A DNA stretch of 64,000 nucleotides from Elusimicrobiota bacterium (GCA_040757695.1 JBFLWK010000002.1:10407-74406); one strand, 5' to 3'; positions 32,992 to 62,613 are shown, counted from the stretch's first letter. The notes: generated by a model not told the origin, from the sequence alone. Numbers and translations: made by a program.

Positions 32992-33350
32992 AAAAAAAAT
33001 TGTTATTCTGAGAGAAAGTAGCCGACGCTGGACTGAAATGGGGACGGATGAAAATCGCCCTAAAGGGACGCGCCAAAAAGGGACGGAGCAAATAACGGGA
33101 ATGGGGATGCTTCTAATAGGAAATAAGGGCGGGTCTGATTTATGATGTCTTGGAGAATTCCGAGCGAAGCGAGGGCTATCTTAACCACGAAATCACGAAA
33201 GTCCGAAAAAAAACTATCAAAAAGTTTCGTGTTTTCGTGTTTTCGTAGTCATGTAGTGTGGCCTTCATGCCACACTACAGGAAGACTACTTTTCTACGCT
33301 CCGATAAATTGGAGCGGTTCTAACCGAAACTAAAGTCAGTATGAAAAAAT

Positions 33351-35396
33351 ATGCACACCTATATAACTACTAGATGGAAAGATGGAAAGATGGAAAGATG
33401 GTTAGGTAATAGATTTTCCTTTCTATCTTTCTATTTTTCTATCTTTCTATCTCTCTATCTTTCTACCTGCCTTTATGCAACTGCATCTGCACCGAAAGTG
33501 GTTGAGGATGGTGTACTGTTCACATTTGACGCAAAGAATGCACATAAAGTATATTTAGCCGGCTCTTTTAAGAAAGATAATGATGGGAATTCAGTGGTTA
33601 ATTTCAGCGAACTTGTAACGGTAACTAAAAAACGGCTCTTGGTTGAAGGTCGGATTCTAAAACCGTTAATTGTTGAAAAAATCAAAAAAAATTTGGATAG
33701 CATTTATATAAAAAAAATAGTCCTGCATAAAATCTGGATAAAACCAAATGAAGAAACGAAAGTTACTGTAGATATAGAAAATATAGAGAGTAAAAAAAAA
33801 GATACTACACTTGTGTTTTATGTTAAAAAGTTTGACAACCAAGTATTAGCACAAAAAGAAACAAAAAAAATAGAGAAATCTATAACATTTGAAATCCAAA
33901 CAAAAAGTTACAGTGAAGACGGTTATATTTTTGAGTTTGAATTAAAAGAAAAAGAAAAAGTTATAGATAGAGAATATGAAGTTATTTCAATAGTAAAAAA
34001 TATTTCTGATGATTTAAGATACGGCTTCTATGCAAACTGGGATAAAATCGGCGCTGACTACAAGAAGAAAACCGACTATTTTGCACAACTGCATATCAAT
34101 GCGATTGAGTATTACGATTATTTTCCAGCACACGGTTATTACGCACCTAAAGAAAAAATGTATAAATCTGAGCCATTCGGTATAACGATTTTAGCCGACG
34201 ATATTCAGCAAAAAATTGATTCTGCACGAGACCGAAATATCCTGTCTGTTGCATATGTTGCTGCATATTCGGCTTCTAAATCTATTTATGAAAAATACCC
34301 GTATCCAATGACTGATGAAAAAGGCAACCCGAAAGTTTTTAATGGTAGTATCACAACAGAACTTGACGCCAAAAACCAAAACAAGGATATCTGGTTTTAT
34401 CTGATGGCAATCGCACAGGATACTAAATGGTATTCTTACATTATGGAACAGTTCAGAAAAACGATGGATAATTCTGCTGATGATTTGGTTTCATTTGATG
34501 GTTTTGAGATTGATTCTTACGGTCATTCCAAAAACGAACGATACTATAGTGCAAGTAGTAAATATAATGGTGAACTGTTGAGCACAATTATTATGACTTT
34601 TGTGAATGCTGTTCGTAAAATAGCACATAAAATTAAACCTGATTCTGTTGTATCGTTTAATTGTGTCAACGAATACGGTATAGAGCAAATGTGTAATATA
34701 GTGGATTTCCTATTCATAGAGAATTGGGCGGGTTATAAAAGCGGCTTAGAAGATTTAGTTGATATCTGCTATAAAAACCGTGTGGCTAAAAATCAGCGGG
34801 TAGTAATCAAACTCTATCCAGCGGATACTGTGGGCAGTCCAAAAATATTCTCAAAAGAATGTCTGAAATACTTACTCGGTGCTGCAATGACCGGCGGCGG
34901 CTCCGTTATGGTTGCCGGCGAGCCTGACGAACAAAACAACCGAATGCATGCGTTGAATACGCTTTATTATCCTGATAATGTCGCAATGCCCGACGACAAT
35001 TTTGGTATCTTAAAAAATTATTATACTTTTGATACACTGCTATACAGAATCACACACGGCAAAAATGTGAATAACCTGAAGTCAGATTTTGAACTACCGG
35101 ATTGTATTACAAGAGAATTTTTATCAAATAGATATATCGTGGTAAGTATTTTGCATAACGGCAACAACAGTGAATGGAATCAAAAAGTTGCCACACCGAA
35201 TACATTAGAAAACTACGAAATTGCTTATACTCTGCCTAAAAACAAAAAACCAGTCGCGGTCTATTATGGAACGCCGGATTACGAGGAATTACTAATACCT
35301 AAATCATTAGATTGGGAGTTAAAAGACGGATATATTCGGACACTACTGCCGAAACTTGAAACTTACGGTGTTTTAATAATAGAAACAATACAATGA
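33351..35396 (+). CDS. lipoprotein with putative TIM-barrel glycoside-hydrolase-like C-terminal domain (family uncertain; GH66/GH114-like suspected)
   Basis: 681 aa; repeat-built signal peptide ending YLSTCLYATASA; C-terminal FAQLHINAIEYYDYFPAHGYY. Sits next to ABC sugar transporter genes. Confidence 0.45.
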   Translation: MHTYITTRWKDGKMERWLGNRFSFLSFYFSIFLSLYLSTCLYATASAPKVVEDGVLFTFDAKNAHKVYLAGSFKKDNDGNSVVNFSELVTVTKKRLLVEGRILKPLIVEKIKKNLDSIYIKKIVLHKIWIKPNEETKVTVDIENIESKKKDTTLVFYVKKFDNQVLAQKETKKIEKSITFEIQTKSYSEDGYIFEFELKEKEKVIDREYEVISIVKNISDDLRYGFYANWDKIGADYKKKTDYFAQLHINAIEYYDYFPAHGYYAPKEKMYKSEPFGITILADDIQQKIDSARDRNILSVAYVAAYSASKSIYEKYPYPMTDEKGNPKVFNGSITTELDAKNQNKDIWFYLMAIAQDTKWYSYIMEQFRKTMDNSADDLVSFDGFEIDSYGHSKNERYYSASSKYNGELLSTIIMTFVNAVRKIAHKIKPDSVVSFNCVNEYGIEQMCNIVDFLFIENWAGYKSGLEDLVDICYKNRVAKNQRVVIKLYPADTVGSPKIFSKECLKYLLGAAMTGGGSVMVAGEPDEQNNRMHALNTLYYPDNVAMPDDNFGILKNYYTFDTLLYRITHGKNVNNLKSDFELPDCITREFLSNRYIVVSILHNGNNSEWNQKVATPNTLENYEIAYTLPKNKKPVAVYYGTPDYEELLIPKSLDWELKDGYIRTLLPKLETYGVLIIETIQ

Positions 35397-35399
35397 AAC

Positions 35400-35570
35400 C
35401 GCAGATGAACGCAGATATACGCAGACGCCGTTCCCGTCCCGTATGTGTCATTCCCGCGAAAGCGGGAATCTACGGGATAAACTCCAGCGGGAATCTACAA
35501 TTATGGATTCCCGATAGAGACACTCGGGAATGACACTTCGTGTCATCTGTGTTCTCAGTGTTCTCTGTGG
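35400..35570. repeat. left arm of ~150-bp inverted repeat (ACGCAGAT iterons + GGGAATGACA hairpins)
   Basis: Near-identical reverse complement of 36461-36655. Confidence 0.8.
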
Positions 35571-35580
35571 TTAAAATTAG

Positions 35581-36456
35581 ATGAAAAAAACAATAAAAGA
35601 AAACCTTACGGGCTATGCGTTTCTTTTACCAAATATCTTGGGCTTTCTGGTATTTGTTTTTTTGCCAGTTTTCGCATCGCTGGTCTTAAGTTTTTTTGAA
35701 TGGGATCTGTTCAGTACACCTGTTTTCGTCGGTGTCGCTAATTTTGTGAAACTGGTCAAAGACACTTATTTCTGGAAATATCTGTTGAACACACTGTTCT
35801 TTATGCTTGGAATACCTGTTGGAATGGCGGTCTCTTTACTTTTTGCAATAATGATGAATCAGAAAATCAAAGGAATCGTATTTTTCAGAACTGTTTATTT
35901 TATGCCAGTTGTCTCGTCATTTGTCGCCTGCGCACTGCTCTGGCGATGGATTTATAATCCTGATTTCGGGCTCTTGAACGGGCTGTTAAAAATGGTTGGC
36001 ATAAACGGTCCTGCATGGCTTTCTTCAACAACTTGGGCTAAACCAGCAATTATTTTGATGAATATCTGGAAAGGTGCAGGATATAATATGCTGCTTTATT
36101 TAGCAGCACTTCAAGGCATTCCGGATTTTTTATACGAAGCTGCAGAAGTGGATGGCGCAGACATTTGGAATAAATTCTGGCATATCACTTTTCCATTGCT
36201 TTCACCAACACATTTCTTTATTATCATTATGAGCGTAATTGGTGTCTTCCAAACATTTGGCGAGATATTTATGATGACAGGTGGCGGACCCGGTGGCTCA
36301 ACCACGACAATCGTTTATTACATCTATAATAATGCATTCCAGTGGTTCCATATGGGTTATGCATCGGCAATCTCTTGGGCACTTTTTGCGCTGATTTTTG
36401 GCGCTACTATTCTTCAATGGAAATATACTGCCAAATTCAGAGAACTAACATATTAA
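35581..36456 (+). CDS. ABC sugar transporter permease (MalF/UgpA-like)
   Basis: 291 aa, 6 TM; EAA-like loop LAALQGIPDFLYEAAEVDGA. Confidence 0.85.
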   Translation: MKKTIKENLTGYAFLLPNILGFLVFVFLPVFASLVLSFFEWDLFSTPVFVGVANFVKLVKDTYFWKYLLNTLFFMLGIPVGMAVSLLFAIMMNQKIKGIVFFRTVYFMPVVSSFVACALLWRWIYNPDFGLLNGLLKMVGINGPAWLSSTTWAKPAIILMNIWKGAGYNMLLYLAALQGIPDFLYEAAEVDGADIWNKFWHITFPLLSPTHFFIIIMSVIGVFQTFGEIFMMTGGGPGGSTTTIVYYIYNNAFQWFHMGYASAISWALFALIFGATILQWKYTAKFRELTY

Positions 36457-36460
36457 AAAA

Positions 36461-36655
36461 ATGAAACCACAGATAAACACAGATGAACACAGATGACACG
36501 AAGTGTCATTCCCGAGTGTCTCTATTGGGAATCCATAATTGTAGATTCCCGCTGGAGTTTATCCCGTAGATTCCCGCTTTCGCGGGAATGACACATACGG
36601 GACGGGAACGGTGTCTGCGTATATCTGTGTGCAATCTGCGTAATCTGCGTTCAAA
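36461..36655. repeat. right arm of ~150-bp inverted repeat
   Basis: Reverse complement of 35400-35570; compared base-by-base by hand over ~150 nt. Confidence 0.8.
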
Positions 36656-36658
36656 AAT

Positions 36659-37468
36659 ATGGTAAAAAAAATTATTACTTATTCAATACTGATATTTGGC
36701 GCAGTTGTAATGCTCGCACCGTTTCTGTGGATGCTCTCTACATCGTTAAAAGAGCCCGGTGCAGTGTTTGTATATCCGCCAAAATGGCTGCCTGTGCCTG
36801 TCCGATGGCGAAATTATGTTGATGCATGGAATGCGGTTCCGTTTGGCAGGTTCTTCCTGAATTCTATTCTTGTCTCTTTATGCGTTACAATCGGGCAGGT
36901 GCTCACATCATCGCTTGCTGCATATGCGTTTGCGCGGCTGAGTTTCAAAGGCAGAGATAAAATATTTTTAGGCTATCTCGCTACAATGATGATACCATTC
37001 CCAGTAACAATGATACCGGTTTTTATCTTAATCACAAAATTGCAACTGATTGATTCTATACAAGCACTGATACTACCGGGGCTTTTTACCGCATATGGAA
37101 CTTTTATGTTAAGGCAGTTTTTTCTGTCTATCCCGAAAGAATTAGAAGAGGCGGCAGTGATTGACGGTGCGAGCAAATTCAGAATCTGGTGTCAGATAAT
37201 CATGCCTTTATCAAAACCGGCATTAGCAACACTGGCAACATTCACATTTATGGGCACCTGGAATGATTTTATGTGGCCATTGATTGTGATAAAAACAAAA
37301 ACAAAAATGACACTACCAGTCGGGCTGGCATCGTTTCAGGGAATGTATTATACCGACTGGACGCTCCTTATGGCTGCAAGTGTGATTGTGCTTCTGCCAG
37401 TGCTGTTGGTTTATATATTCAACCAACGATTTTTTGTTAAAGGTATCGCCTTAACAGGACTTAAGTAG
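36659..37468 (+). CDS. ABC sugar transporter permease (MalG/UgpE-like)
   Basis: 269 aa, 6 TM; EAAVIDGASKFRIWCQIIMPL EAA motif. Confidence 0.85.
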   Translation: MVKKIITYSILIFGAVVMLAPFLWMLSTSLKEPGAVFVYPPKWLPVPVRWRNYVDAWNAVPFGRFFLNSILVSLCVTIGQVLTSSLAAYAFARLSFKGRDKIFLGYLATMMIPFPVTMIPVFILITKLQLIDSIQALILPGLFTAYGTFMLRQFFLSIPKELEEAAVIDGASKFRIWCQIIMPLSKPALATLATFTFMGTWNDFMWPLIVIKTKTKMTLPVGLASFQGMYYTDWTLLMAASVIVLLPVLLVYIFNQRFFVKGIALTGLK

Positions 37469-37476
37469 GGGGGATT

Positions 37477-38877
37477 ATGCAAAAAGTGGCTAAGTGGTTT
37501 GTTGACTTCAAGTGGTTAAGTGGTCAAGTGAATAGATGGTTTGGTGGTCAGGTGGTTAGGTGGTTAGGTTTGGTTTTCCTATCTACCTATCTACCTATCT
37601 ACCTATCTACCTGCTTTACCGGTTGCAGGAAAAAAGATGGGAAGTTAAAAGAAGGCGAGGTAGAACTTGAATATATGATGTGGGGTGAGCCGGATGAATT
37701 AAAAACGGTAACCGAGTACTTGAAACAATTTGAAGAAAAGTTCCCTAAAATCAAGATAAAAATACTGCATACCCCACAAAATTACGACGATAAACTAAAA
37801 ACGATGTTCGCTGCACATACACCGCCGGATGTTATGTATGTCGGGCTTGAGACATTCCCATCATTCGCAACCCGCGGTGTGCTTTTAGACCTCAATCCAT
37901 ATCTTGAACGAGATAAGCAGGAGTTTAACCTTAACGATTTTTATCCGGAACTGATGAAATGTTTTGAATACGATGGAAAGTATTACGGGATTGCAAAGGA
38001 CTTTACACCGTTAGTTTTGTATTACAACAAAGATATGTTTGATAAAATGGGGGTAAAATATCCGAATAAGAAGGGTGGGTGGAAATGGGCTGATTTTTTA
38101 GATGCTGCAAAAAAACTGACTGTTGATTTTAATAACGATGGTAAAATAGACCAGTACGGGTTTGTATTAGAGACATGGTTTCAAGAATGGGCACCTTGGG
38201 TTTGGCAGAATGATGGAAAAATAATGAGCGATGATAAAAAGAAATGGCTGCTCGGCTCACCTGAGTATATTGATAGAAATTCAGAAGCAGTCCAGTTCCT
38301 TGCGGATTTGGTCTGGAAACATAATGTCGCACCGAGACCAACTGTGACAACTGATTTTGGTACTGCGGATATGTTTATGACTGGCAAAGTGGCTATGTGC
38401 ACTTACGGTAGATGGATGTGTATGCAATTCAGGCATATAAAAGATTTTAAGTGGGATATCGCACCACTGCCGTATAACAAAAAACGGGCTGCTACGCTTT
38501 TTGTTGTCTGCTACGGTATCGCAAACGAATCCAAACATAAAGAAGAGGCATGGCAACTTATAAAGTACTTGATGAGTAAAGAAGGGCAGGAATTGGTTGC
38601 AGAAGCAGGTCATGCTATACCGTCTTTGAAATCAGTTGCAAAGTCAGACCGTTTCCTGAAAGCGAAAGTGATTACTCAGCCGATAGATGCAAAGGTTTAT
38701 CTTGATTCAATAAAATATGCTCAACCGACACCGACAAATCCATACTGGGTTGAAATAAATGAGTTATTAGGCAGAGAGATTGATTGGGTCTGGCAGGGTA
38801 AAAAACCAGCCAAAGAAGTTTTAGAAACAATTCAGCCACAGATAGAAAACCTGCTATCAAAATATTATGTAAAATAA
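37477..38877 (+). CDS. ABC sugar transporter substrate-binding lipoprotein
   Basis: 466 aa; paralogous to 1021-2286; leader built from AAGTGG/AGGTGG and CTACCTAT repeats ending YLSTCFTGC. True start may be an internal GTG. Confidence 0.8.
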   Translation: MQKVAKWFVDFKWLSGQVNRWFGGQVVRWLGLVFLSTYLPIYLSTCFTGCRKKDGKLKEGEVELEYMMWGEPDELKTVTEYLKQFEEKFPKIKIKILHTPQNYDDKLKTMFAAHTPPDVMYVGLETFPSFATRGVLLDLNPYLERDKQEFNLNDFYPELMKCFEYDGKYYGIAKDFTPLVLYYNKDMFDKMGVKYPNKKGGWKWADFLDAAKKLTVDFNNDGKIDQYGFVLETWFQEWAPWVWQNDGKIMSDDKKKWLLGSPEYIDRNSEAVQFLADLVWKHNVAPRPTVTTDFGTADMFMTGKVAMCTYGRWMCMQFRHIKDFKWDIAPLPYNKKRAATLFVVCYGIANESKHKEEAWQLIKYLMSKEGQELVAEAGHAIPSLKSVAKSDRFLKAKVITQPIDAKVYLDSIKYAQPTPTNPYWVEINELLGREIDWVWQGKKPAKEVLETIQPQIENLLSKYYVK

Positions 38878-38959
38878 TAGAGTCAACTTTTTCTACGAAA
38901 CTTTAGTTTCGGTTAAAACCGAATCAGAACCGGCACTGAAGTGTCAAAAGTAACACAAG

Positions 38960-39582
38960 GTAGACGGCAATTAATTGCCGTCTACGGAAGGAGATAAATA
39001 TATGGGCAAAATTCACAGGTTTTTGGAAAAAGGTGCGGTTCATTTTGTAACAACTAATACTATAAATCGTGTGAAAATTTTTAATGATGAAGTTTCTGCA
39101 AGATTTCTGTTATTATGTATTGGGTATCATAAGTTTATGCTTAATTTTTACCTTCTGGGATATGTGATTATGCCAGACCATTTACATATGTTGTTGCAGA
39201 TTTTAAGCGAGAAATATAATCTATCTGTTATTATGAAGCAAATCAAAGGCAATTTTGCCCGTAAATACAACGAATGGTATCAAAAAAACCAACCCACAGG
39301 TAGTCGGCGTTTAAACGCCGACTACCTGAAATGGGATTATAGAGGGTTTTCATACAAACCTGTATGGCAGGAAAGTTTTTATGACACTGCATTACGAGAC
39401 CCAAAACAAGTTCGTGAAAAAATAGAATATATGCATTGGAATCCCGTCAAAGCAGGGATTGTTGACCACCCTAAAGATTATGAATTTTCAAGTTATCACC
39501 AGTATTACGGTGAAAAAAGATTATGGATACAAATCCCTATAGAAAAATTTATAATTTAATACGGCATTTAATTGCCGTCTAC
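38960..39582 (+). mobile_element. RAYT family-1 cassette: REP palindrome - RAYT gene - REP
   Basis: 5' GTAGACGGCAATTAATTGCCGTCTAC (38960-38985), 3' ACGGCATTTAATTGCCGTCTAC (39561-39582); same architecture as 62614-63222. Confidence 0.7.
39002..39559 (+). CDS. REP-associated tyrosine transposase (RAYT; IS200-like Y1 HuH transposase, COG1943-like)
   Basis: HuH motif PDHLHMLL; C-terminal YMHWNPVKAGIVDHPKDYEFSSY. SD GGAAGGAG upstream of ATG 39002; ~80% identical to 62656-63210. Contains an internal perfect 28-nt palindrome at 39299-39326. Confidence 0.75.
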   Translation: MGKIHRFLEKGAVHFVTTNTINRVKIFNDEVSARFLLLCIGYHKFMLNFYLLGYVIMPDHLHMLLQILSEKYNLSVIMKQIKGNFARKYNEWYQKNQPTGSRRLNADYLKWDYRGFSYKPVWQESFYDTALRDPKQVREKIEYMHWNPVKAGIVDHPKDYEFSSYHQYYGEKRLWIQIPIEKFII

Positions 39583-42500
39583 ATTGTAATAGGTATTTCT
39601 TACCTTTATGGGTCATTTACTATAACTGCGGGGACGGCTACGCTTTCTGATTTCACAACTGTTGATATTTCAAGCGATGTTGCAATTGATGCAGGTGCAG
39701 TGTTCGTAGCAAGCGGTGGTGTTATCAATATAGGCAGAAACTGGACCAAAAATGATACCGGTATTTTTGATTTCGGCACCTCAACCATTACATTTTATAC
39801 AACATATACAAGCACACTTACAGGCAATACCACTTTTTACTGTTTTCGTTGCGAAACCTCAGCAAAAGAATTGCAATTTACCGAAAAGTCAACCCAGACG
39901 GTAACAAATATATTCACACTAACAGGTGCTTCGGGTAATTTGATAAAACTGCGGTCAACAGTTGACGCTTCTTTATGGTATATTCAATTCCCAAACAGCG
40001 CTCAATCGGTTGATTATGTAGATGTTAAGGACTCATCTGCCTGTATAAAAACGGTTACCGCTAACTATTCTACTGATTCCGGGAACAACTTTAACTGGAT
40101 ATTCCCGAATAACCCGCCGACAATTTCAGGACTTACTCAACTTGCTGGGAGTGAGGCTTTAGCCTCAATGCAATGGACAAATTCGTCATTAATCATTTCG
40201 TCATTCACACTTCAAGACCCGCAAGCAGGTGATACTGTAAAGTTTTATCTACACGTGACTTCAGTCACAAGTGGAAGTTCTGCTGACTGGTCACAGCCAT
40301 TTTTCTGTACAACATCTGCATATCTATCGCAAGGGACTACAGGATACCTGTGGACTACACTAACCGATAAAGCAACATACTGGTGGCGATGCTGGGCAGA
40401 AGACAGTCAAGGTGCCACATCGTCCACAAATACAACACTCGGTCAGGGCGGTGTCGCAAAATTCGCCTTTGATAACAAGCCACCGGATGCTATCTCAAAT
40501 CTTACCGCACTCACAGGCACACAATACGATGGTGATATATTACTCAAATGGACTGCACCCGGTAGCGATGGTGCAGTTGGCGATTTCTCAGGTCAATACC
40601 ATATCAAATGGTCTACAAGAACAGAAAATATTACAAATTTTGACTCCCCACCATATCCTACATATGAACGGTATGTAAGTAGTTCTATAATAGCACAACA
40701 AGAACAGGTATTCACAATGACTGGTTTAAATCCAGGCACAACTTATTATTTCGCAATTGAAACGATAGATACCGCCGGGAATACAGCATCATGGTCAACA
40801 GTCGGTGTCAATACAGCCAACCGAAATTATGCTTTGGACTTAAATCCTAATCCACCACCTTCACTTTCTGCAATTTCCAACTCCTCAACAACTATCAATC
40901 TGTCCTGGGAAAAACCTGTCCCTCTATATATTGATGATATTTCGTATTACCATATTTTTCGTGCTACATTTACATTCACAAGCACAACAACACTGAATGT
41001 TATTTTGGTAGATACCGTTACTCATCCTACTGATGTTCATATATCAACAGGACTCGCTATCCATACAACCTACTACTACCGGATAGTTACTTTTGATAAA
41101 GGTGATACAGACCCCGGGCTTATAAGTTATGTGTTGAACTCTATTACTTCTACGATAGTAAACGCCTGTCCGCAACCGACTGCCTCTGAAAAAGTAAAGG
41201 TAAGCGTGGTCTATGATAACCGTTCTTCTACAAATACAAACAATTACGGGCTTATTGATGGTATTGAAGATGCAGATGGTACTGTCACCTGGGATTGGCC
41301 ATTTATACCTGATGGTGGGAATATCACCAAATACGAGATTGAGGTCTCAACAGATATAAATTTTTCATTCTACTCATCTTCTGCAGCGCTTTCATCAACT
41401 GTTTCTACATATACCGCAACGGGTTTAGTGCGTGGAAAATATCATTATGCGCGTGTCCGTGCCACAAATGACGAAGCCATCACAGGTAGTTGGACTGCTT
41501 CAGACGGTATCTATGTGAATGCAAAAACGGTTGACGGCTCGCTTGCCGATTGGTCAACTTTTAACCTATCAACATATAACTTTATAACTACCTATCAAGG
41601 TGCAGGAAACTGGCGTGAGGCGGTCTGGATTGATACAACTACTGACGAGCGTGGTGCAGATGATAACCAGCCAAATTATACACAACTGGATATCGCTACA
41701 TTTTCAATTACTTGTGATGAATATAATCTTTATATGTATGTGCTTTTTGCTTCCAGTAATACCGGTGGTAGTTCGCCTGTTTTTGATGGCAGGAATTTTG
41801 TACAAATTTTAATTGACAATGGTAACATCTCTGCAGAACGCGTCTTCCGTGGTCGTGGTGATAAATACGAGGACAGTTATGTCTCAAAATATGTTTCCTG
41901 GGAATATCTATGTGAGATTGTAACAGGTAACGACCAGTTTCGTGTAGAAGATAATTTATTCACTAACCGCCAGTATGGAAAGTATACAGAAAATAACAGC
42001 GGCTACTTTTATGAAGTTGCAATGCCATTATCAAAATTAGGTGGCAGTAGCAAATTTTTAGGCAAAACGGTTAACTTCACAGTTGCAACATTCTGGAATG
42101 ATGGTGACGCTATCGGCAACTGGTCACCTGCAACAAATTCTAATATAGTAGATGTAGTAAGTTCATCAGGACCTGCTACTTGGAATGAAGTTGAAGGCAG
42201 GATTGTTGACCATTATCTCGCAATCACATTTTCTACATTTGGCTATGTTAGTTCTGCTACTTCTACACTATCAACAACATCTTCAATCCCGGATGAGCCA
42301 GAAAACGCATCAAACGGTGTCTCACCCTGCCCGCCTTCTGCACTGGACTATATTATGTATCGGCTTTTCCCGGATGCATGGTATAACGGCGATACTACTA
42401 ACGACGATATCGGCGATACTAACGATTACGGTGGTGATTTCCAGGGTGTTATAGATAAAGTGGACTACCTCAACGAGATGGGAATCAATATGGTTTATTT

Positions 42501-45500
42501 CGGGCCTTTCCATGAAAATGGTGGCGGTATCTGGGGCTACAATATTGACGATATCTACAAGCACGAAGGTAAGTTCGGTGGTACTTCCAAATATATTGAG
42601 ATGATGAAAACACTCAGAAACCATAATATCAAAGTAATGATGGACTGGGTACCGGGTCAGGTTGGTGGACCTGATTCACCAACTGCGAAGAAGCATCCTA
42701 CATATTATCAGCCGGAGCAGTTTTCTACCTCTGGCGGTGGCACAAAACAGGAATATGCAGAACCACGCGCACTTTATCTCAACAATCTCATCTGGAATAT
42801 GTCAATAACAGATGCTGTCCGTTTTGATAACCCCAAATTCTGGGATAATGGTCTCGGACCTGAACAATATGAGTTTAATAGAGCGTTGAGGAAACTTACT
42901 GACCGCTGGGACCCGCAGTACTACCTCTTTTCTGAGATACCAGAAACCGCTGGCGATATCAATAACTATACAGGAAATAACGGGCCGATGCTACACGGTG
43001 GCGAGCAGATGAAAGTAGGTGGGTATAAAGAAGGTGGGCAGTATTATATCAGTTCGTGGGCTATGCCCAAGGGTACTGTTGGTGTGGCTGCTGAAGCTAA
43101 TAATAGACATAGTAACGCAGATGGCTGGAATACTTCTCAAGTTTGTAGAAATAGTTTAGATAATGAAGAAATCAATTGGAAAAACGAGTGGGCGATAAAC
43201 GCAACAATTATGGAAAGCCATGATGAACGAAGATTCATCAGCAGATCTCGTGGAGATGATGGTGCTTCCTGGGGATATGATTCTCAGGTTGGTTATATGG
43301 CAGCAATCACACTCGGTGGGCCTTTAAGTATTATGTATGGTGGTGAAGTCGGTCTTGAAGGTCCTTACGATGGCTCACAAAAAGCAAAAATGGATATCAA
43401 CGGCAATGTTCGGCTAATGGAGTTTGATAGAGTTAATGTTGACCCGTGGACTAATGTTAGACCCGCTATCCGGCGAGCAATTCAAGCAAAAGCAAATTTC
43501 GCACCATTGCGCGGCGATCCCCAAGAAGGCGGTCGCGGATGGTATAACGGAACAGATGCTGCCGAGTTTGATACAAATATTCTTGGATGTTCAAGAACTG
43601 GCTGGGGTCAGAAAGCAATTGTCTTCTGGAACTGGTCAGCAGGTGATATAACCCTGCCAGCTCTTATAGGCACAGGTGATGCAAGCACAAGTTATAAGGA
43701 CTGGCTTACCGATGCTGGATATACAACGAATGCGTCCGGACAGTTCACAACTACAATTGTAGTGCCATCACATTACGGAAGAATTCTGATTCGTGGTGGT
43801 TATGACTGGGTAAACTGCACAGGCACCGTTACAAGTGGTGGCTCACCTGTCGCAAACGCTGTTGTTGATATTGACCAGAAATCACACTGGACTGTGATGA
43901 CTGATGCGAATGGTTATTATTCTATTTCAGGCAATTTAAGAAAGATATTAACCGGAAGTCATACTATACGCTGCTGGGCGGATGGCTATAATATCGCAAC
44001 CACAGATGTTAATTTCACAACCGCACTCATAAATAATGGTGTTGATTTTACATTAACAACAGATAATACACCACCATCAGCACCATCAACACTCGCTGCA
44101 CAGCCAAGAAGTGAAGCAGTGATGCTTTCCTGGCAGCCAAATACAGAATCGGATTTTCAGTCGTATCTTATCTATCGCTCGTCAACAGAACCTATACCCG
44201 ATGGCTCATTCCCAGAACCAGTTTTTGAGGTATTCAAAACATTTTATTATGATAACAATCTTGACGGACAATTAGACAGCAACGACAATGTCTACGACCG
44301 GATACAAAATGGAACTACATACTACTACCGTATCCGTGCGGTTGATAGGAACGGTAACAAATCTGCATTATCTAATCAAATTACTGTAATCCCAAGAGCT
44401 GTAAAAGTAAAATTCTGGCTGGATGCGCGGGATTCCGGACTCACCATAACATCTGCTACTGTAACTGGCGGTGCACTCGCATTCGGGAATGCTACATATG
44501 GCAGTTGGCCCAACGGTTTGGCAATGGATGAAGTTGTAGACGGTGTTTTTCAGAAAGAGGTTGAGTTTGACGATACAATATTTTTGGAATACAAATATAA
44601 ACTTCACAATGGTAATAATGTTTGGGAGGGTAGTAGTGGTCAATTGTTCCTTGACGGGCCTCAACAAGGTCACAACCGTGGTGAACTTTACAAATATAAC
44701 CAGTCAAATAGTGTGAATGAAAACGAGCAGGTGCCTGATATTGAAATAAAAGATGAAGGCAATGGCGAGATGATATTAGCGGATAAATGGCAATACTATA
44801 ATGACCAAGCACCAAGAACACCACAAGGGCTTGAAATCACCGCAGGACCGAATCAACTAACTGTTGGATGGACGGCAAATGCAGAGCCGGATTTGAATTA
44901 TTACACAATCCGTACTTCTAATACTGCCGATAGTACACTTAAATATGTGCAGGTATCAAGTGCAGCAATCAATTATGTTGACCTCGGGCTAACTAATAAT
45001 GTTACCTATTTCTATTCTGTTTCCGCTACTGATAGACGAGGCAATACATCCGGCTATTCTTCTGTAATTTCGGACTACCCGAGAGCAACTGATACATCTG
45101 CACCTTCTACACCAACAGGGCTTGAAGCAGTAGGCGCAGGCACTGATGGCTTGACTGCAATCAAAGTAAAATGGTCGCAAAATTACGAAGGTGATTTAGC
45201 AGGATATAATATCTATAAATCAACTGTGTCAGGTTTCACACCCGACACTACAAATAAATTGAATTATACGCTTATCTGCCCAACCGCTACTTATTATACC
45301 GATTCTAATATCACAACCGGCACTACTTACTATTACAAACTCGCAGCAGTTGATTCTTCAGGCAACAGTTCACCGTATACCTCACAACTCTCTGTGAATT
45401 TATTCCCAATCACTTTTGAAGTAGATATGGGTAATATCACATTAACAAATGTCCAGATTATCGGTGATACAGAACCACTTGACTGGACCACATCGATAAA

Positions 45501-47886
45501 CCTTACACAAATGAGTAATAGTACCACATGGTATCGCCAACTCGGAATGGTCGCTAATAGCAGCATCAGATACAGATACTCGTATAATAACGATTTAGAT
45601 AACAAAGAACAGAACTTTAATACAGCATCTACAGACCGTGAATATACAATCCCATATTCAACAACAACAAACTACGACGACTGGGAAGAAAATCCGGATG
45701 CAATTGCAGGCACACTGGTTTATGCAGGGTATCAAAAAGCGAATCTTTATTGGGATAGAAATACAACCGCTGAAGAATTACTCGGCTACAATATCTATAG
45801 AAACGACGGGCTTACAAGCCAGACAACTATACAGCTAAATGCATCACCTGTCTCTTACAGCCAGCCATACACTGTAGAAGGACTTACACTTGGCAATACT
45901 TACTCATTCCTGATTCGTGCAGTTGATTCAGGTGGCCAAAAACTTGAAAGTTCTACCGCAACCGTTGTTTCCTGCTGGATTAGTAACCAGATTGTTTATG
46001 TTAATTTCGGTGTGCCATACACAATTGGGCTTGCAAGTTCGCCTTGGGGTGATAGTAGTAAAATCCAACTGCAACTCGCGATAATGTCATCAACACAAAC
46101 TTCAGTTTGGAGTTCAGCCGACAGAGCGAATATTACTAATGGAAAACTTGATATGACTGCAGATGCTACAAACAAAACCTATCGCGCTAGTGTGCCGCTG
46201 ATTAAAGGGCAGTACTACAATTTCTTGTTCTTTGCAGAAACAACCGCAACACCACCAGACGGGCTTAAAGCTAATACCGTATACTACGATTGCGTCTGGA
46301 ACGCTGGCACCTGGAATAGTTATTCTGTAGTTCCATCAACTGCAAAATTTATCACATCTAAAAGTTCAACTTCTATAACAGGTAATCAATACGGCTGGTT
46401 TGGTAACGCAGGCAAAGATAATGATGCTCGCAGAATCTTGTATGTGGATACAACACTTGACAATGATGCTACCTGGTATGTATTCGCTAATTTTGCATCT
46501 ACACCTACCGCACCAACATATATTCAAGCGATACCCGGGAATCAAAAGGTTACCCTTGTATGGTCTGCACCTTACGGCAATGCATGGATATGGCCACCAC
46601 CCCAAAACACAGGTAATGTGCCTGCAAGTGGTGGTGAGTCAATGAAAGCCGCAGATGTTGTCTGCGGCGGTGTCTACCAGATATATGTCTGCACAGATAT
46701 AGCAATCACAAACGATTTCTCTAAATATCAAGCAACTGCTACTGTTTCCGGTAGTTCGTTTACATATACATCCCCGCCACTCAAAAACGGCGTCACATAT
46801 TACTACATTATCCGTGCTTCAGATACCTTTAAGGGAATTGCTGGCGGAATTGACGGCAACTGCTACAGCGTATTTTCTGCCACTGTCTCTGCGTGCCCGA
46901 CTAACGAGTATGTAGTTGTAAAAATAAGAGTGAATAAAGGCGCAGAACCAATATGGCGTAATGTCCGAAAAACAATCGCATTCCAGGAAGGTCAAACCGT
47001 GTCCGCATGGGATGAAGTAGGCAGGTCTAATTTAACATCAACAGGTCGTGCTGTAAATATGACCGCACCTGCTGATGATTCAACCGAGCAGGAGTTTTCT
47101 GTAAATCTTGCTGGTGGAACAACTTACAATTTTATATTATTCGCATATTCTACATTCACAATCTCAGGACTTACCGTCGGAACAACATATTACGATACCG
47201 TCCCTACAAGCGGCTCTAATGGTATGGCAACCTCAACATCTACCGCTAATATCACATCACACGGTTCTGCGTGGTATGGCAATGTAGGTGCTACTGGCGA
47301 TTCCAGACGGCTTTTATATGTGCCACGATTATCTCAACTTGGTGGCGGTGCAACTTTGTATGTATATTGCAACTTCGCAGCCAGACCTACACAGTCGTCT
47401 GTGTATGCCACTGCTGCATCTTCTTATTCAATATTGTTAATGTGGACACCATATGGTGCCTGGGGAACTGATAGCGAATCATTCAAAGCTGCTGATGTCA
47501 TTGCAGGCGGGTTTTATTATGTTTATCGCTCGTCAGTTTCAGCATCAGGACCATATGTTTTGTGGGCTTCTACAGATGTTATGTCATGGACTGATGATGA
47601 TAAAGATACATCTGGTGATAACAAAGGGCTGATTGGTGGGAATGAGTATTTCTATGTTATTGTCGCATCAGACGCATACAAAGGTGCATCAGGTCAGGTA
47701 GCAATACCGAATCTGTATCGCACAGGTGCACCTGAATTCTCAACTGCAGATGCTAGTTTTACACCCGGTGAGCGGATACCGCTATATTTCAAGGTAGAAA
47801 GAAAAGATATTATATACCCGACTTTAGTCGGCTACGTAGAAAAAAGATTTACACCTGACTTACTTATACCCGACTTTAGTCGGTAA
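39523..47886 (+). CDS. giant (2787 aa) secreted GH13 alpha-amylase-family surface protein with beta-helix-like N-terminus, FN3, CBM9-like, CBM20-like x2-3 and three C-terminal modules of unknown function
   Basis: GH13 module ~42300-43600: GGDFQGVIDKVDYLNEMGINMVYFGPF, NIKVMMDWVPGQ, IMESHDERRF. CBM20-like: ITFEVDMGNITL...IRYRYSYNNDLDNKEQNF. Only in-frame start (39523) lies inside the RAYT 3' end; the stop lies inside the REP family-2 cluster. Confidence 0.8.
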   Translation: MDTNPYRKIYNLIRHLIAVYIVIGISYLYGSFTITAGTATLSDFTTVDISSDVAIDAGAVFVASGGVINIGRNWTKNDTGIFDFGTSTITFYTTYTSTLTGNTTFYCFRCETSAKELQFTEKSTQTVTNIFTLTGASGNLIKLRSTVDASLWYIQFPNSAQSVDYVDVKDSSACIKTVTANYSTDSGNNFNWIFPNNPPTISGLTQLAGSEALASMQWTNSSLIISSFTLQDPQAGDTVKFYLHVTSVTSGSSADWSQPFFCTTSAYLSQGTTGYLWTTLTDKATYWWRCWAEDSQGATSSTNTTLGQGGVAKFAFDNKPPDAISNLTALTGTQYDGDILLKWTAPGSDGAVGDFSGQYHIKWSTRTENITNFDSPPYPTYERYVSSSIIAQQEQVFTMTGLNPGTTYYFAIETIDTAGNTASWSTVGVNTANRNYALDLNPNPPPSLSAISNSSTTINLSWEKPVPLYIDDISYYHIFRATFTFTSTTTLNVILVDTVTHPTDVHISTGLAIHTTYYYRIVTFDKGDTDPGLISYVLNSITSTIVNACPQPTASEKVKVSVVYDNRSSTNTNNYGLIDGIEDADGTVTWDWPFIPDGGNITKYEIEVSTDINFSFYSSSAALSSTVSTYTATGLVRGKYHYARVRATNDEAITGSWTASDGIYVNAKTVDGSLADWSTFNLSTYNFITTYQGAGNWREAVWIDTTTDERGADDNQPNYTQLDIATFSITCDEYNLYMYVLFASSNTGGSSPVFDGRNFVQILIDNGNISAERVFRGRGDKYEDSYVSKYVSWEYLCEIVTGNDQFRVEDNLFTNRQYGKYTENNSGYFYEVAMPLSKLGGSSKFLGKTVNFTVATFWNDGDAIGNWSPATNSNIVDVVSSSGPATWNEVEGRIVDHYLAITFSTFGYVSSATSTLSTTSSIPDEPENASNGVSPCPPSALDYIMYRLFPDAWYNGDTTNDDIGDTNDYGGDFQGVIDKVDYLNEMGINMVYFGPFHENGGGIWGYNIDDIYKHEGKFGGTSKYIEMMKTLRNHNIKVMMDWVPGQVGGPDSPTAKKHPTYYQPEQFSTSGGGTKQEYAEPRALYLNNLIWNMSITDAVRFDNPKFWDNGLGPEQYEFNRALRKLTDRWDPQYYLFSEIPETAGDINNYTGNNGPMLHGGEQMKVGGYKEGGQYYISSWAMPKGTVGVAAEANNRHSNADGWNTSQVCRNSLDNEEINWKNEWAINATIMESHDERRFISRSRGDDGASWGYDSQVGYMAAITLGGPLSIMYGGEVGLEGPYDGSQKAKMDINGNVRLMEFDRVNVDPWTNVRPAIRRAIQAKANFAPLRGDPQEGGRGWYNGTDAAEFDTNILGCSRTGWGQKAIVFWNWSAGDITLPALIGTGDASTSYKDWLTDAGYTTNASGQFTTTIVVPSHYGRILIRGGYDWVNCTGTVTSGGSPVANAVVDIDQKSHWTVMTDANGYYSISGNLRKILTGSHTIRCWADGYNIATTDVNFTTALINNGVDFTLTTDNTPPSAPSTLAAQPRSEAVMLSWQPNTESDFQSYLIYRSSTEPIPDGSFPEPVFEVFKTFYYDNNLDGQLDSNDNVYDRIQNGTTYYYRIRAVDRNGNKSALSNQITVIPRAVKVKFWLDARDSGLTITSATVTGGALAFGNATYGSWPNGLAMDEVVDGVFQKEVEFDDTIFLEYKYKLHNGNNVWEGSSGQLFLDGPQQGHNRGELYKYNQSNSVNENEQVPDIEIKDEGNGEMILADKWQYYNDQAPRTPQGLEITAGPNQLTVGWTANAEPDLNYYTIRTSNTADSTLKYVQVSSAAINYVDLGLTNNVTYFYSVSATDRRGNTSGYSSVISDYPRATDTSAPSTPTGLEAVGAGTDGLTAIKVKWSQNYEGDLAGYNIYKSTVSGFTPDTTNKLNYTLICPTATYYTDSNITTGTTYYYKLAAVDSSGNSSPYTSQLSVNLFPITFEVDMGNITLTNVQIIGDTEPLDWTTSINLTQMSNSTTWYRQLGMVANSSIRYRYSYNNDLDNKEQNFNTASTDREYTIPYSTTTNYDDWEENPDAIAGTLVYAGYQKANLYWDRNTTAEELLGYNIYRNDGLTSQTTIQLNASPVSYSQPYTVEGLTLGNTYSFLIRAVDSGGQKLESSTATVVSCWISNQIVYVNFGVPYTIGLASSPWGDSSKIQLQLAIMSSTQTSVWSSADRANITNGKLDMTADATNKTYRASVPLIKGQYYNFLFFAETTATPPDGLKANTVYYDCVWNAGTWNSYSVVPSTAKFITSKSSTSITGNQYGWFGNAGKDNDARRILYVDTTLDNDATWYVFANFASTPTAPTYIQAIPGNQKVTLVWSAPYGNAWIWPPPQNTGNVPASGGESMKAADVVCGGVYQIYVCTDIAITNDFSKYQATATVSGSSFTYTSPPLKNGVTYYYIIRASDTFKGIAGGIDGNCYSVFSATVSACPTNEYVVVKIRVNKGAEPIWRNVRKTIAFQEGQTVSAWDEVGRSNLTSTGRAVNMTAPADDSTEQEFSVNLAGGTTYNFILFAYSTFTISGLTVGTTYYDTVPTSGSNGMATSTSTANITSHGSAWYGNVGATGDSRRLLYVPRLSQLGGGATLYVYCNFAARPTQSSVYATAASSYSILLMWTPYGAWGTDSESFKAADVIAGGFYYVYRSSVSASGPYVLWASTDVMSWTDDDKDTSGDNKGLIGGNEYFYVIVASDAYKGASGQVAIPNLYRTGAPEFSTADASFTPGERIPLYFKVERKDIIYPTLVGYVEKRFTPDLLIPDFSR

Positions 47887-47940
47887 AAACAAACAAGCCC
47901 ACTAAAGTGGGGAATAATTTTACACCCGACTTTAGTCGGC
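47812..47940. repeat. REP family-2 cluster (3x ACCCGACTTTAGTCGG + CCCACTAAAGTGGGG)
   Basis: Encodes the last ~25 aa and stop codon of the 2787-aa protein (...YPTLVGYVEKRFTPDLLIPDFSR*). Confidence 0.75.
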
Positions 47941-47953
47941 AAAAACAAAAAAT

Positions 47954-48526
47954 ATGCGGTTTTATCTAGATAATACATATTATTTCATAACGTGTGCAAC
48001 CAGAGAACATTATACACTATTTAATACAAATGAGAAAAAACAAATTTTACTTAATCAAATAAATAAAGTAGAAAAAAACCTAAAAATTCCAGTTCTGTCA
48101 TATGGGATTCTTGCAAATCATTATCATATATTATTTCATCTTTTAGAAGGTAAGAAACTTAAAAAAGCAATGCAAACTATAAATGGTGGCAGTTCGTATC
48201 TGCTAAATCAACTGACCGGTATCTATCGGTCGGTATGGGATAAATACTTTGCAAAAATAATAACTACCGAACAGATGTTTTACAAAATTATTGGATATAT
48301 TGCGGGAAATCCTTTAAAACACAGTGAAGTAAATAATTTTGAAGAATTAAAATCGTACCAATTCTCAAATTATTATCAGCTTTGTTACATTTATGGCGAA
48401 AAAACAGCAAAGGCGCTTGTGCAAAGTACAATTGTAGTAGATGAAGCAGATAATTTTAAACCCGACTTTAGTCGGTTGAAAGAAGCGCAACTTACACCCG
48501 ACTTCAGTTGGCTGAAAGAAGTGTAA
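47954..48526 (+). CDS. REP-associated tyrosine transposase, second family
   Basis: 190 aa; HuH-like ILANHYHILFHL; C-terminal YIAGNPLKHSEVNNFEELKSYQFSNY. C-terminus (PDFSRLKEAQLTPDFSWLKEV) is REP-encoded; flanked both sides by REP-2 clusters. Confidence 0.6.
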   Translation: MRFYLDNTYYFITCATREHYTLFNTNEKKQILLNQINKVEKNLKIPVLSYGILANHYHILFHLLEGKKLKKAMQTINGGSSYLLNQLTGIYRSVWDKYFAKIITTEQMFYKIIGYIAGNPLKHSEVNNFEELKSYQFSNYYQLCYIYGEKTAKALVQSTIVVDEADNFKPDFSRLKEAQLTPDFSWLKEV

Positions 48527-48571
48527 CTTACACCCGACTTTAGTCGGAGAAAACAAACCCACTAAAGTGGG
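48461..48571. repeat. REP family-2 cluster (CCCGACTTTAGTCGG, ACCCGACTTCAGTTGG, ACCCGACTTTAGTCGG, CCCACTAAAGTGGG)
   Basis: Mirrors the upstream cluster 47812-47940. Confidence 0.75.
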
Positions 48572-48726
48572 AAATAATATGGTCGCTAACCAGACAAAAG
48601 GGGGTGATTAAAATGGGAAGATGGTTAGAAACTGGAGTACGACGATTTATCGTCGCTAATTCGCGTATATTCGCGGGTCTAATTCGCGAAGATTCGCGTT
48701 ATTCTAAAAAAAAGGAGGTGATTAGA

Positions 48727-49854
48727 ATGGAAAGATGGTTAGATGGAAAGATGGTAAGATGGCTCGGTCTTGCTTCTTGCTTCTTGTTTCTTGTTTCTTG
48801 TTCGCTGTTTGCTGATTTTGGTGGTGCAGGTGCGCCTACTGCTGATGGTACATATGGTGCAGCGGTAAAGTACATCTCTTTACAGCAAGGAACAACATCA
48901 TCTGCATGGATGAATAGAGGCAATATCGCAGCATTCGCTCAAATGACTTCTGTTGGTGATGGAACATACTACTGCAAATACAACCTCTATCCGGGCGCTG
49001 TCTACAACTATATGTTTTTTGCTACTTTTGGTAGTTCAACACCACCAACCGGTATAACCGGTGGGACAACCTACTATGACTGCCCTCGTGATAGCGGTGA
49101 TGATGCTGCATTCTTTGTAGCGGTTGACTCCAACAACCCAACTGGAACAAGACGAGCCGGTGCCGCATATTTCGGTGCAGGTAATGATAGTGGTGATTCC
49201 AGACGAATACTTGTTGTGCCACAGGATACCGGTTATTCGCTTTCTTCAACCTCAGGTGTCTGGGTGTATAACAACTGGTCATCTACCGGTGTAGCAAATG
49301 TAGATGCAATCCCTGTAAGTAACACATCTCTCAATGTTACACTTGGTGCGTACACAACATGGGGAACTGGTGAAAGTTACAAATCTATTGACATCTACGG
49401 TGGCGGGAAATGGTTTCTCTATAGAGCAACAGACCTCACGGGTACTTACGGGTTAATTGCATCTTCTACCTCTGCTAACTTAGGTGCTAATATGACCTAT
49501 CTGGATGAAGGTTTAACAACAGGTACCACTTATTACTACATCGCAGTTACATCAGATGCCTATAAAGGTGCAATGAACGCACTTGCAGCAGATGGCTGTC
49601 TTGTGAGGCAGTTAACTGGCGGTGCAACAGGACCATATGCGCCAAGTTATGACCAGCCTAGTGAAATCAGTTATGACGACTACGCAAGACCTGCAGCTGC
49701 GATACCTGTGTACTTCAAAGTTGAAGCACCCAACTGGGACTATATCGCAGAGCATGACTACATAGTATACCTGACACCGGTTGGTAAAGACGGCAGAGAA
49801 TGGCCATACAAGATGCCAGGCAGAATCTGTAGAGTGTATCTACCGAAAACATAA
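48727..49854 (+). CDS. secreted protein paralogous to the C-terminal modules of the 2787-aa protein
   Basis: SD AAGGAGGTGATTAGA before ATG 48727; signal peptide FLFLVSCSLFADF. YFGAGNDSGDSRRILVVP ~ WYGNVGATGDSRRLLYVP; PVYFKVEAPNW ~ PLYFKVERKD. A near-duplicate start (ATG 48613) lies upstream. Confidence 0.6.
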   Translation: MERWLDGKMVRWLGLASCFLFLVSCSLFADFGGAGAPTADGTYGAAVKYISLQQGTTSSAWMNRGNIAAFAQMTSVGDGTYYCKYNLYPGAVYNYMFFATFGSSTPPTGITGGTTYYDCPRDSGDDAAFFVAVDSNNPTGTRRAGAAYFGAGNDSGDSRRILVVPQDTGYSLSSTSGVWVYNNWSSTGVANVDAIPVSNTSLNVTLGAYTTWGTGESYKSIDIYGGGKWFLYRATDLTGTYGLIASSTSANLGANMTYLDEGLTTGTTYYYIAVTSDAYKGAMNALAADGCLVRQLTGGATGPYAPSYDQPSEISYDDYARPAAAIPVYFKVEAPNWDYIAEHDYIVYLTPVGKDGREWPYKMPGRICRVYLPKT

Positions 49855-62598: not shown

Positions 62599-62613
62599 AA
62601 AAAATTAAAAAAA

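Follow-up and report, generated by a model that had tools for sequence, protein, structure and literature searches.

Genes for REP-associated tyrosine transposases (RAYTs) flanked by their own repetitive extragenic palindromic sequences (REPs) are known as REPtrons, reportedly from the studies of Nunvar et al. 2010 and Bertels & Rainey 2011 and, for E. coli TnpA_REP, of Ton-Hoang et al. 2012. Here we analysed a stretch of 64,000 nucleotides (nt) from Elusimicrobiota bacterium (GCA_040757695.1, JBFLWK010000002.1:10407-74406; called the window in its whole length, with positions counted from its first letter), in which an 8.4-kb open reading frame (ORF) encoding a GH13-family protein of 2787 amino acids (aa), the megaprotein, lies between two such transposase genes, RAYT-1 and RAYT-2, whose cassettes provide its predicted start codon and its stop codon. 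As in REPtrons, RAYT-1 and RAYT-2 possess the HUH motif and the catalytic tyrosine, align with the E. coli enzyme (PDB 4ER8) and are each bordered by REPs of their own family, further copies of which are scattered over the window; family 1 has a GTAG head, and family 2 forms inverted doublets similar to REPINs (REP doublets forming hairpins). Unlike in REPtrons, the host belongs to the Elusimicrobiota, the family-2 REPs have neither the GTAG nor the CGTC tag and surround RAYT-2 as direct and not as inverted copies, the score of RAYT-2 falls slightly short of the NCBIfam cut-off, and RAYT-1 as well as a third gene of the window, RAYT-3, carry a REP within their own ORF.

Two further systems offer points of comparison. 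The review of Delihas 2011 is said to cover the remodelling of ORFs by miniature inverted-repeat transposable elements (MITEs), i.e. Correia/NEMIS, ERIC and RUP; like these, the elements of the window are small non-autonomous repeats beside genes that add or replace gene ends and regulatory signals, whereas terminal inverted repeats and DDE transposases characterise those MITEs, and hairpin REPs together with RAYTs of the Y1/HUH type characterise the window. In E. coli, a REP situated no more than ~15 nt from a stop codon reportedly lowers translation of the upstream gene, with ribosome stalling and trans-translation (Liang, Rudd & Deutscher 2015, Mol Cell). The megaprotein gene resembles this arrangement in that a hairpin ends at its stop codon and the next one begins 11 nt later, and differs from it in having two hairpins inside the ORF.

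The GTAG REPs analysed by Di Nocera, De Gregorio & Rocco 2013 (BMC Genomics 14:522; PMC3733652) often supply, by their termini, the TAG stop of neighbouring ORFs, encode segments of 20-30 aa and overlap the ends of RAYT genes ('5'ov/3'ov'); more than 10% of the intragenic REPs are located at ORF C-termini and more at N-termini, most of the N-terminal cases being suspected of resulting from mis-called starts. Stop donation, ORF-terminal and intragenic REPs, encoded segments of 20-30 aa and the overlap with RAYT ends are all shared by the window and by three related loci described below (L002-L004), and the general behaviour, i.e. REPs remodelling the ends of ORFs, is thus already published (PMC3733652), the window being a clear local example of it and not a new mechanism. 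Compared to that work, in which signal peptides are not mentioned (PMC3733652), what would be specific here is that the start codon itself originates inside a RAYT ORF and that, there being no alternative start, the REP would necessarily be translated as part of a predicted signal peptide if the protein is exported. A full-text literature search combining the stem Elusimicrobi- with RAYT gave, among the titles and abstracts listed, none on REP/RAYT elements, and a second one for a signal peptide or start codon supplied by a REP returned no such case in titles or abstracts. Protein-coding genes of Rickettsia likewise contain in-frame palindromic elements, the RPEs (Ogata et al. 2000, via PMC3733652), comparable to the short in-frame palindromes tolerated here in a PorV-like gene, in RAYT-1 and RAYT-3 and in the signal peptides of two megaprotein orthologs (P0002 and P0004). 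RPEs differ from the 26-32-nt REPs with RAYTs present here in their greater length and in their host genomes, which are reduced and intracellular, and no RAYT is known to accompany them.

The following features make up the 5' end of the megaprotein gene, together with the cassette used for comparison:
38960-38985, unstranded: left REP of the RAYT-1 cassette, a perfect 26-nt GTAG-type palindrome (GTAGACGGCAATTAATTGCCGTCTAC) aligning with the left REP of RAYT-3
39002-39559, plus strand: RAYT-1, REP-associated tyrosine (HUH/Y1) transposase of 185 aa, from ATG 39002
39297-39328, unstranded: perfect 32-nt GTAG palindrome within the RAYT-1 ORF, with the in-frame reading TGSRRLNADYL
39523-47886, plus strand: megaprotein gene, 2787 aa, divergent GH13 catalytic region with fn3 and beta-sandwich modules
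39523-39612, plus strand: predicted megaprotein signal peptide of 30 codons, MDTNPYRKIYNLIRHLIAVYIVIGISYLYG followed by SFTITAG, its first 62 nt being cassette DNA
39561-39584, unstranded: right REP of the RAYT-1 cassette, a truncated copy ACGGCATTTAATTGCCGTCTAC (39561-39582) plus AT
62613-63235, plus strand: RAYT-3 cassette (gene 62656-63210, PF01797 37 bits), the comparator defining the limits of the RAYT-1 cassette

The original prediction, made from the sequence, had placed the only in-frame start of the megaprotein ORF, ATG 39523, within the last 12 codons of RAYT-1 (LWIQIPIEKFII followed by the stop), in a different frame, and this proved correct. An in-frame TGA at 39511 lies 4 codons before this ATG, which is the first start of the ORF, and the next ATG, GTG or TTG is GTG 39700 at codon 60, beyond the conserved mature N-terminus. 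Because of the TGA at 39511 no upstream start outside the RAYT is possible, and an alternative canonical start before or after the REP is ruled out by the same TGA and by the distance to codon 60. All orthologs have a signal peptide followed by the conserved motif (S/N)F(T/I)I.(A/G)G, which begins at codon 31 in the window; with the mature motif at codon 31 and the next start at codon 60, ATG 39523 is therefore the only canonical start giving an exportable protein.

The share of the cassette in this start region follows from the alignment of the RAYT-1 and RAYT-3 cassettes, which extends from the left REP through ...GCCGTCTACAT (window 39584), the sequences being unrelated beyond this point. 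The RAYT-3 cassette has an equal out-of-frame ATG at 63174, from which 23 codons are read (MDTNTDRKIHYLIRHLNAVYIIR) before a stop; the ATG, the Shine-Dalgarno (SD)-like CGGTGA and the first 62 nt are therefore regular parts of the cassette. In the overlap the cassettes differ five times, each time synonymously with respect to the RAYT, the tail of which is identical. In all, 62 nt at the beginning of the megaprotein ORF, including the ATG, stem from the cassette and encode the ~21 first amino acids of the protein (MDTNPYRKIYNLIRHLIAVY(I)), the gene's own sequence reading VIGISYLYG-SFTITAG onward (the hyphen marking the predicted cleavage site). The SD-like CGGTGA lies 8-9 nt before ATG 39523, with a duplex energy of -7.6 kcal/mol, mid-range among the genes of the window.

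As had also been anticipated, the hydrophobic h-region of the predicted signal peptide is partly encoded by the REP at 39561-39582, which reads IRHLIAVY in the megaprotein frame and provides half of the best 10-residue core, LIAVYIVIGI (Kyte-Doolittle value 3.03); the n-region has a net charge of +2. The position of LYG-SFTITAG coincides with the cleavage sites IHA-SF, AYG-SF and VSA-SF of orthologs, and in length, charge and hydrophobic core, by simple measures, the N-terminus of the window protein is not distinguishable from those of REP-free orthologs. These data support that cassette DNA makes up the n-region and half of the hydrophobic core of the predicted signal peptide, along with its start codon.

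The 3' end is bordered by a second, different system and, behind it, by a paralogous gene:
47809-47886, plus strand: REP family-2 array at the megaprotein 3' end, with one copy at 47809-47832, a degenerate one at 47844-47860 and another at 47861-47884, followed by TAA
47896-47940, unstranded: inverted variant hairpin CCCACTAAAGTGGG and a third family-2 REP, forming a REPIN-like doublet with 47861-47884, upstream of RAYT-2
47954-48526, plus strand: RAYT-2, a second, unrelated Y1/HUH transposase of 190 aa
48453-48580, unstranded: downstream REP family-2 array, with copies at 48453-48476, 48489-48512 and 48525-48548 and the inverted variant at 48556-48580
48727-49854, plus strand: downstream paralog, 375 aa from ATG 48727, resembling the last megaprotein modules and possessing the conserved C-terminal tail

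Homology to the orthologs ends directly past PVYFKV(E/D), after which the window continues with RKDII, then with REPs reading YPTLVGYVEKRFTPDLLIPDFSR, and then with TAA. The array starts 5 codons past the conserved PLYFKVE, and the two complete family-2 copies and the degenerate copy between them encode IIYPTLVGYVEKRFTPDLLIPDFSR; the final ~25 codons and the TAA directly behind the last copy are hence REP DNA, with RAYT-2 following, as originally predicted. This region folds with -41.2 kcal/mol (z = -6.6) into a structure that includes the last 22 codons, the stop being right behind the stem, and the second hairpin starts 11 nt past the stop codon.

The same prediction had gone further and proposed that REP insertion truncated the last module of the megaprotein compared to the downstream paralog, and this part is not borne out. 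The ~45-aa tail of the paralog, ..PVYFKVEAPNWDYI..VYLTP..PYK.PG.I.RVYLPKT, is strongly kept among the paralogs in all loci and absent from all seven megaprotein orthologs, with or without REPs, and its loss is therefore clade-wide and not attributable to the REP array of the window. The ortholog P0004, the 3' end of which is REP-free, stops 11 aa past FKVE; P0005, P0006 and L007 have only a ~30-aa divergent tail; the window and L003 have in common a short stub, R(K/N)(D)II, after FKV(E/M), followed by different REP families. The REPs of the window thus appear to have taken the place of a nearby stop and to have lengthened the ORF by about 22 codons compared to P0002, P0003 and P0004. The remodelling of the C-terminus by REPs stands in so far as REP DNA encodes the last 25 codons together with the stop, and falls with respect to the truncation of the module. 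We also considered that the REP-encoded tail could have diverged from that of the paralog, and a BLAST alignment did run through it, but rejected this; the DNA of the tail is repeated six times around RAYT-2, and the similarity is therefore taken as chance.

Seven orthologous loci were compared, five of which (L002-L006) were found by exact-protein look-up and two (L007 and L008) by a scan of genome contigs, the scan having added just these two distant orthologs:
P0002 (L002), close, 73-74% identity: in-frame 57-nt REP doublet in the signal peptide at the 5' end; TAG within the GTAGCCGCA REP head at the 3' end
P0003 (L003), close: start without REP; GTAGCGCGGGAG repeats covering the last ~20 codons with the stop
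P0004 (L004), close: family-1 REP (SNRHLSADY) in the coding region at the 5' end; short REP-free tail at the 3' end
P0005/L008 (L005), P0006 (L006) and L007, distant, 53-59% identity: REP-free 5' end; REP-free 3' end with ~30-aa tail

A comparison of both gene ends with related genomes, suggested earlier as a check, gives a divided answer. No RAYT is present beside the megaprotein gene in any of the seven loci, in all of which p250, a gene for a ~250-aa protein, is directly upstream, and the gene ends are free of REPs in the three most distant orthologs; the three closest each carry different REPs within the signal-peptide region or at the stop. Removal of the 19 doublet codons from P0002 leaves a textbook signal peptide, neither P0002 nor P0004 has a start codon downstream of its REP, and the TAG stop of the L002 gene belongs to a GTAG REP head. 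The occurrence of different REPs at the gene ends of close relatives therefore indicates repeated, independent invasion of both ends within one clade. Three related genomes (L002 1638-1694 and 9853-9921; L003 905-965; L007 about 15160-15190) share another REP family, with GTAGCCGCA...TGCGGCTAC termini, of which no copy was observed in the window; between close Elusimicrobiota lineages the REP families are therefore subject to turnover, the sites occupied beside this gene remaining constant.

Both transposases are recognised by profile. RAYT-1 reaches 120.2 bits with the NCBIfam model REP_Tyr_transpos NF047646 (cut-off 80) and also passes Pfam Y1_Tnp; its HUH motif DHLHM (H60, H62) and its motif IEY143MHWNP align with HMH and Y115 of E. 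coli TnpA_REP 4ER8, and in an alignment of 13 RAYT sequences Y143 is invariant and H60 and H62 nearly so. RAYT-2 reaches 36.5 bits with Pfam Y1_Tnp PF01797 (cut-off 23) and, with the NCBIfam RAYT model, 73.9 bits, below the cut-off of 80; it aligns with 4ER8, with NHYHI as HUH motif and IGYIAGNP as tyrosine motif. As RAYTs, RAYT-1 and RAYT-2 would cleave and join single-stranded REP DNA. The two proteins are 29% identical and their REPs are unrelated. Family-1 REPs have the form GTAG(A/T)CGGC...CTAC, i.e. with the GTAG tetranucleotide, and the left REP of RAYT-1 folds with -18.4 kcal/mol (z = -6.4). Family-2 REPs correspond to TTACACCCGACTTTAGTCGG, without a conserved GTAG/GTGG tetranucleotide; each flank of RAYT-2 has three direct TTACACCCGACTTTAGTCGG copies and one inverted compensated variant, CCCACTAAAGTGGG, resulting in the REPIN-like doublets, and the downstream array folds with -44.8 kcal/mol (z = -5.7). 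The last ~25 codons of RAYT-2 are themselves REP-encoded (KPDFSR..TPDFSW), the REPs at 48453-48512 lying inside its ORF. Within the 64-kb window, further copies of family 1 are located at 25582, 53616, 62613, 62942 and 63212 and of family 2 at 383, 412, 2645, 2737 and 59418; the family-2 core is matched 12 times, with 0.05 matches expected, and the family-1 palindrome 3 times, with 0 expected. In all coding copies family 1 is read as S/G-R-H/R-L-x-A-D/V-Y, the remaining two frames running into TAA or TAG.

RAYT-3, the flanking REPs of which are the same, shares 78% protein identity with RAYT-1 at a dS (synonymous divergence) of about 1.1 and a dN/dS (nonsynonymous to synonymous ratio) of 0.13, indicating that the two are old paralogs under purifying selection and that RAYT-1 is no fresh copy; the final ~115 nt of the two cassettes are far better conserved than the remainder. 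The palindrome at 39297-39328 sits in a ~27-aa loop of RAYT-1 that is absent from E. coli TnpA_REP and from most relatives. RAYT-3 also has a perfect GTAG palindrome inside its own ORF (62942-62967), read SSRHLSADY compared to GSRRLNADY in RAYT-1, and two compensatory pair changes between the genes keep this palindrome perfect in what is a hypervariable loop. At the same site, the relative P0054 has the peptide GELIPP, encoded by another palindrome family of the window.

Taken together, we consider it probable that the megaprotein gene is a GH13-family giant gene of a conserved cluster, the spacers of which were colonised by two unrelated REP/RAYT systems ('REPtrons') and the ends of which are now encoded by these elements. 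According to this model the megaprotein would be an ordinary secreted or cell-surface GH13-family protein with short flanking spacers taken over by REPtrons. The right end of the RAYT-1 cassette is fused straight to the segment coding for the end of the predicted signal peptide, with the cassette-borne ATG in the 3' coding region of the RAYT, in another frame, now opening the 2787-aa ORF, and an array of the RAYT-2 family, in place of an original nearby stop, adds about 22 REP codons and ends at the TAA next to the hairpin. Both changes would be tolerated by-products of REP or REPtron insertion or of REP-REP recombination, and we infer that they survived since the n- and h-regions of signal peptides and a C-terminal tail accept nearly any suitable sequence, only REPs with a stop-free frame persisting. 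Translation would most likely start at ATG 39523 by means of the SD-like GGTGA within RAYT-1, and transcription would most likely come from upstream, from RAYT-1 or from an ATP-binding cassette (ABC) transporter operon. Strong hairpins at or just past a stop codon may lower or stabilise expression.

Several points weigh against this model or limit it. The signal-peptide call rests on simple measures of charge and hydrophobicity, and both the use of ATG 39523 and the export of the protein are predictions. No promoter-like site was found on the plus strand in 38700-39700 by a scan that stayed below shuffle expectation and is uninformative for this phylum. A search of 5.8 billion proteins returned no relative between 100% and 73% identity. 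The 5' junction, finally, may have arisen by transposition of the cassette or by a REP-REP recombination that brought a larger segment:
33000-39584, plus strand: extra block of 6.5 kb between p250 (32125-32991) and the megaprotein gene, which are neighbours in all seven orthologous loci

This block contains a 681-aa gene without Pfam match, two ABC permeases, a solute-binding protein and RAYT-1, and is bordered by a GTAG palindrome (33249-33282) on the left and the right REP of RAYT-1 on the right. The 360-nt spacer at its left edge contains this palindrome and short tandem repeats. For the 5' junction we regard it as possible, though not likely, that a REP already present in the signal-peptide region recombined with the right-end REP of a REPtron downstream of the ABC-transporter operon, a single event thereby delivering the whole block and exchanging the 5' end of the gene. 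The separation by 6.5 kb, between GTAG palindromes, of two genes that are adjacent in seven of seven orthologous loci would agree with this, as would the REPs in the signal-peptide region of sister genomes, including the same family-1 REP in L004, and the age of RAYT-1 (dS about 1.1, purifying selection), which suggests a resident rather than a recently hopping copy; the parental arrangement, however, was found in no genome, and the distance of the REP to the cleavage site varies (10, 17 and 31 codons), leaving a common ancestral REP not established. For the gene itself the outcome is the same by either route. That the contig was mis-joined at repeated REPs, the RAYT cassettes not truly lying beside the gene, is hardly credible. 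REPs are repeats at which assemblies break, and a contig from the separate Logan assembly, in which run SRR29635779 carries the gene, exactly matches window 39299-47907 and ends in REPs on both sides, as repeats would predict, with one break in the palindrome 39297-39328; yet this contig crosses both junctions, running unbroken from inside RAYT-1 across the 22-nt right REP into the gene and then across the first two family-2 REPs, the REPs here are shorter than typical assembly k-mers, and the NCBI contig of the metagenome-assembled genome (MAG) that carries the megaprotein gene has a length of 94.9 kb.

Insertion into the spacers of a functional gene also has to be set against the view that the REP-encoded ends are non-functional, the gene being silent or a young pseudogene cut from its real start, or starting at a non-canonical codon past the REP. 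We judge this unlikely. It is in line with the warning of Di Nocera et al. that many 'N-terminal' REPs are extragenic through mis-called starts (PMC3733652), with the modest SD-like motif and the lack of a sigma-70-like promoter on the plus strand, and with the mis-call pattern, i.e. a second SD-ATG after the REP, in the downstream paralog and its L002 counterpart. In the megaprotein gene, by contrast, the stretch from the REP to the conserved mature N-terminus is free of ATG, GTG and TTG codons, ATT or ATA starts would give a 9-residue uncharged stub, P0002 and P0004 are also without a start downstream of their REPs, and the 8.4-kb ORF is intact, with 74% identity to P0002 over 99% of the length. 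An adaptive co-option, with REPs or REPtrons serving as donors of signal peptides, as translational couplers of RAYT and amylase or as yield-tuning hairpins close to the stop, seems improbable to us. REPs of different families do recur at both gene ends in four related genomes, strong structures lie exactly at the stop, and the P/T, Y/D and I/N differences make the window peptide less acidic and more hydrophobic than its RAYT-3 equivalent; the preference of REPs for short spacers by ORF ends together with a filter for tolerated sites predicts an equal recurrence, though (PMC3733652), the 'improving' substitutions rest on one comparison, and the three most distant orthologs do well without REPs.

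The product of the gene is a 100% match to an NCBI protein annotated as 'alpha-amylase family glycosyl hydrolase [Elusimicrobiota bacterium]'. Pfam Alpha-amylase PF00128 is matched with 77.8 bits (cut-off 22), the best stretch covering residues 948-1044, alongside six fn3 stretches and a CarboxypepD_reg-like domain. In a PDB search, the alignment with GH13 enzymes was confined to the ~105 initial residues of the barrel (best E = 2e-14), and the putative catalytic regions gave no significant alignment to solved GH13 enzymes. The putative catalytic residues D1102 (AVRFD1102NPKF), E1138 (SE1138IPE) and D1234 (ESHD1234E) were picked by eye as candidates for the Asp nucleophile, the Glu acid/base and the transition-state-stabilising Asp of conserved regions II, III and IV, and are unchanged in six orthologs; GH13 region I reads DWVPGQ compared to the usual D..NH. 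These data support the assignment of the megaprotein to GH13 at family level, as a predicted divergent enzyme. In relatives the conserved cluster has the order histidine kinase, response regulator, p250, megaprotein, paralog, a ~900-aa protein and a PorV-like protein, of which the paralog (~370 aa) resembles the last modules of the megaprotein, the ~900-aa protein (p943) has a C-terminus of the type IX secretion system (T9SS) type, and the PorV-like one is an outer-membrane protein.

Palindromes were also observed elsewhere in the cluster and in the window. The PorV-like gene (ORF 53117-54157) has an in-frame family-1 REP at 53616-53641, read GSRHLSADY, with 5-8 aa extra compared to L007 and L008, and a degenerate G-rich palindrome (53877-53898) in a variable loop. 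In the gene of the paralog the start module SD + ATG + (G/E)RWL(E/D) is duplicated (48596-48750) around ~85 nt with palindromes CGACGATTTATCGTCG and TTCGCG repeats, and an equal layout surrounds a GTAGGGGCGAATTTATTCGCCC REP at L002 9945-10052; the upstream start that the gene caller assigned to the paralog gene is probably a mis-call. A family-2 copy with one mismatch (59418-59432) is located in a GAF-GGDEF gene (ORF 58107-59522) and reads SPDFSQ, in the same frame as in the tails of the megaprotein and RAYT-2; the GGDEF match of this ORF exceeds the model by just ~4 aa. A 5454-aa ORF with fn3 repeats (8193-24557) has in its middle a perfect 28-nt palindrome, GTAGGGGGGGAATTAATTCCCCCCCTAC (16584-16611), which is read VGGELIPPLP and would not be a simple insertion, sibling repeats having a loop of similar length. 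Palindromes not assigned to a family are found at 3201-3232 (CAGTAGCCTACCCCTTAAGGGGTAGGCTACTG, intergenic) and 494-516 (AGTAGCGAGGTTTCCTCGCTATT), and the pair ATTCCCGCGAAAGCGGGAAT / ATTCCCGCTTTCGCGGGAAT (35450-35469 / 36570-36589) is located in spacers of the ABC-transporter genes.

We think it doubtful that in this Elusimicrobiota clade REP and REPtron DNA is, beyond a tolerated passenger, a recurrent raw material for working gene ends. If true, the stop-free frame of GTAG REPs, encoding Arg/His followed by hydrophobic residues, would repeatedly be built into the signal peptides of large secreted proteins, REPtrons would bear a ready outward-reading SD and ATG able to re-start a decapitated gene, and REP-bounded recombination would rewire operons, e.g. 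by placing a sugar ABC-transporter block directly upstream of an amylase gene.

As a summary, the locus is a well-bounded case in which 'extragenic' REPs and transposase cassettes have come to code for the two ends of a gene. The N-terminal REP of the megaprotein differs from most reported ones in not being dismissible as a mis-called start, and an automatic trimming of such starts by gene callers and curators is not advisable. The contigs of these MAGs break at REPs, so that the true ends and the neighbours of giant genes are often missing from them, and comparisons of C-terminal tails in the megaprotein family need to allow for the turnover of REPs. The data extend REP/RAYT systems, including intragenic REPs and REPs within RAYT genes, to the Elusimicrobiota.

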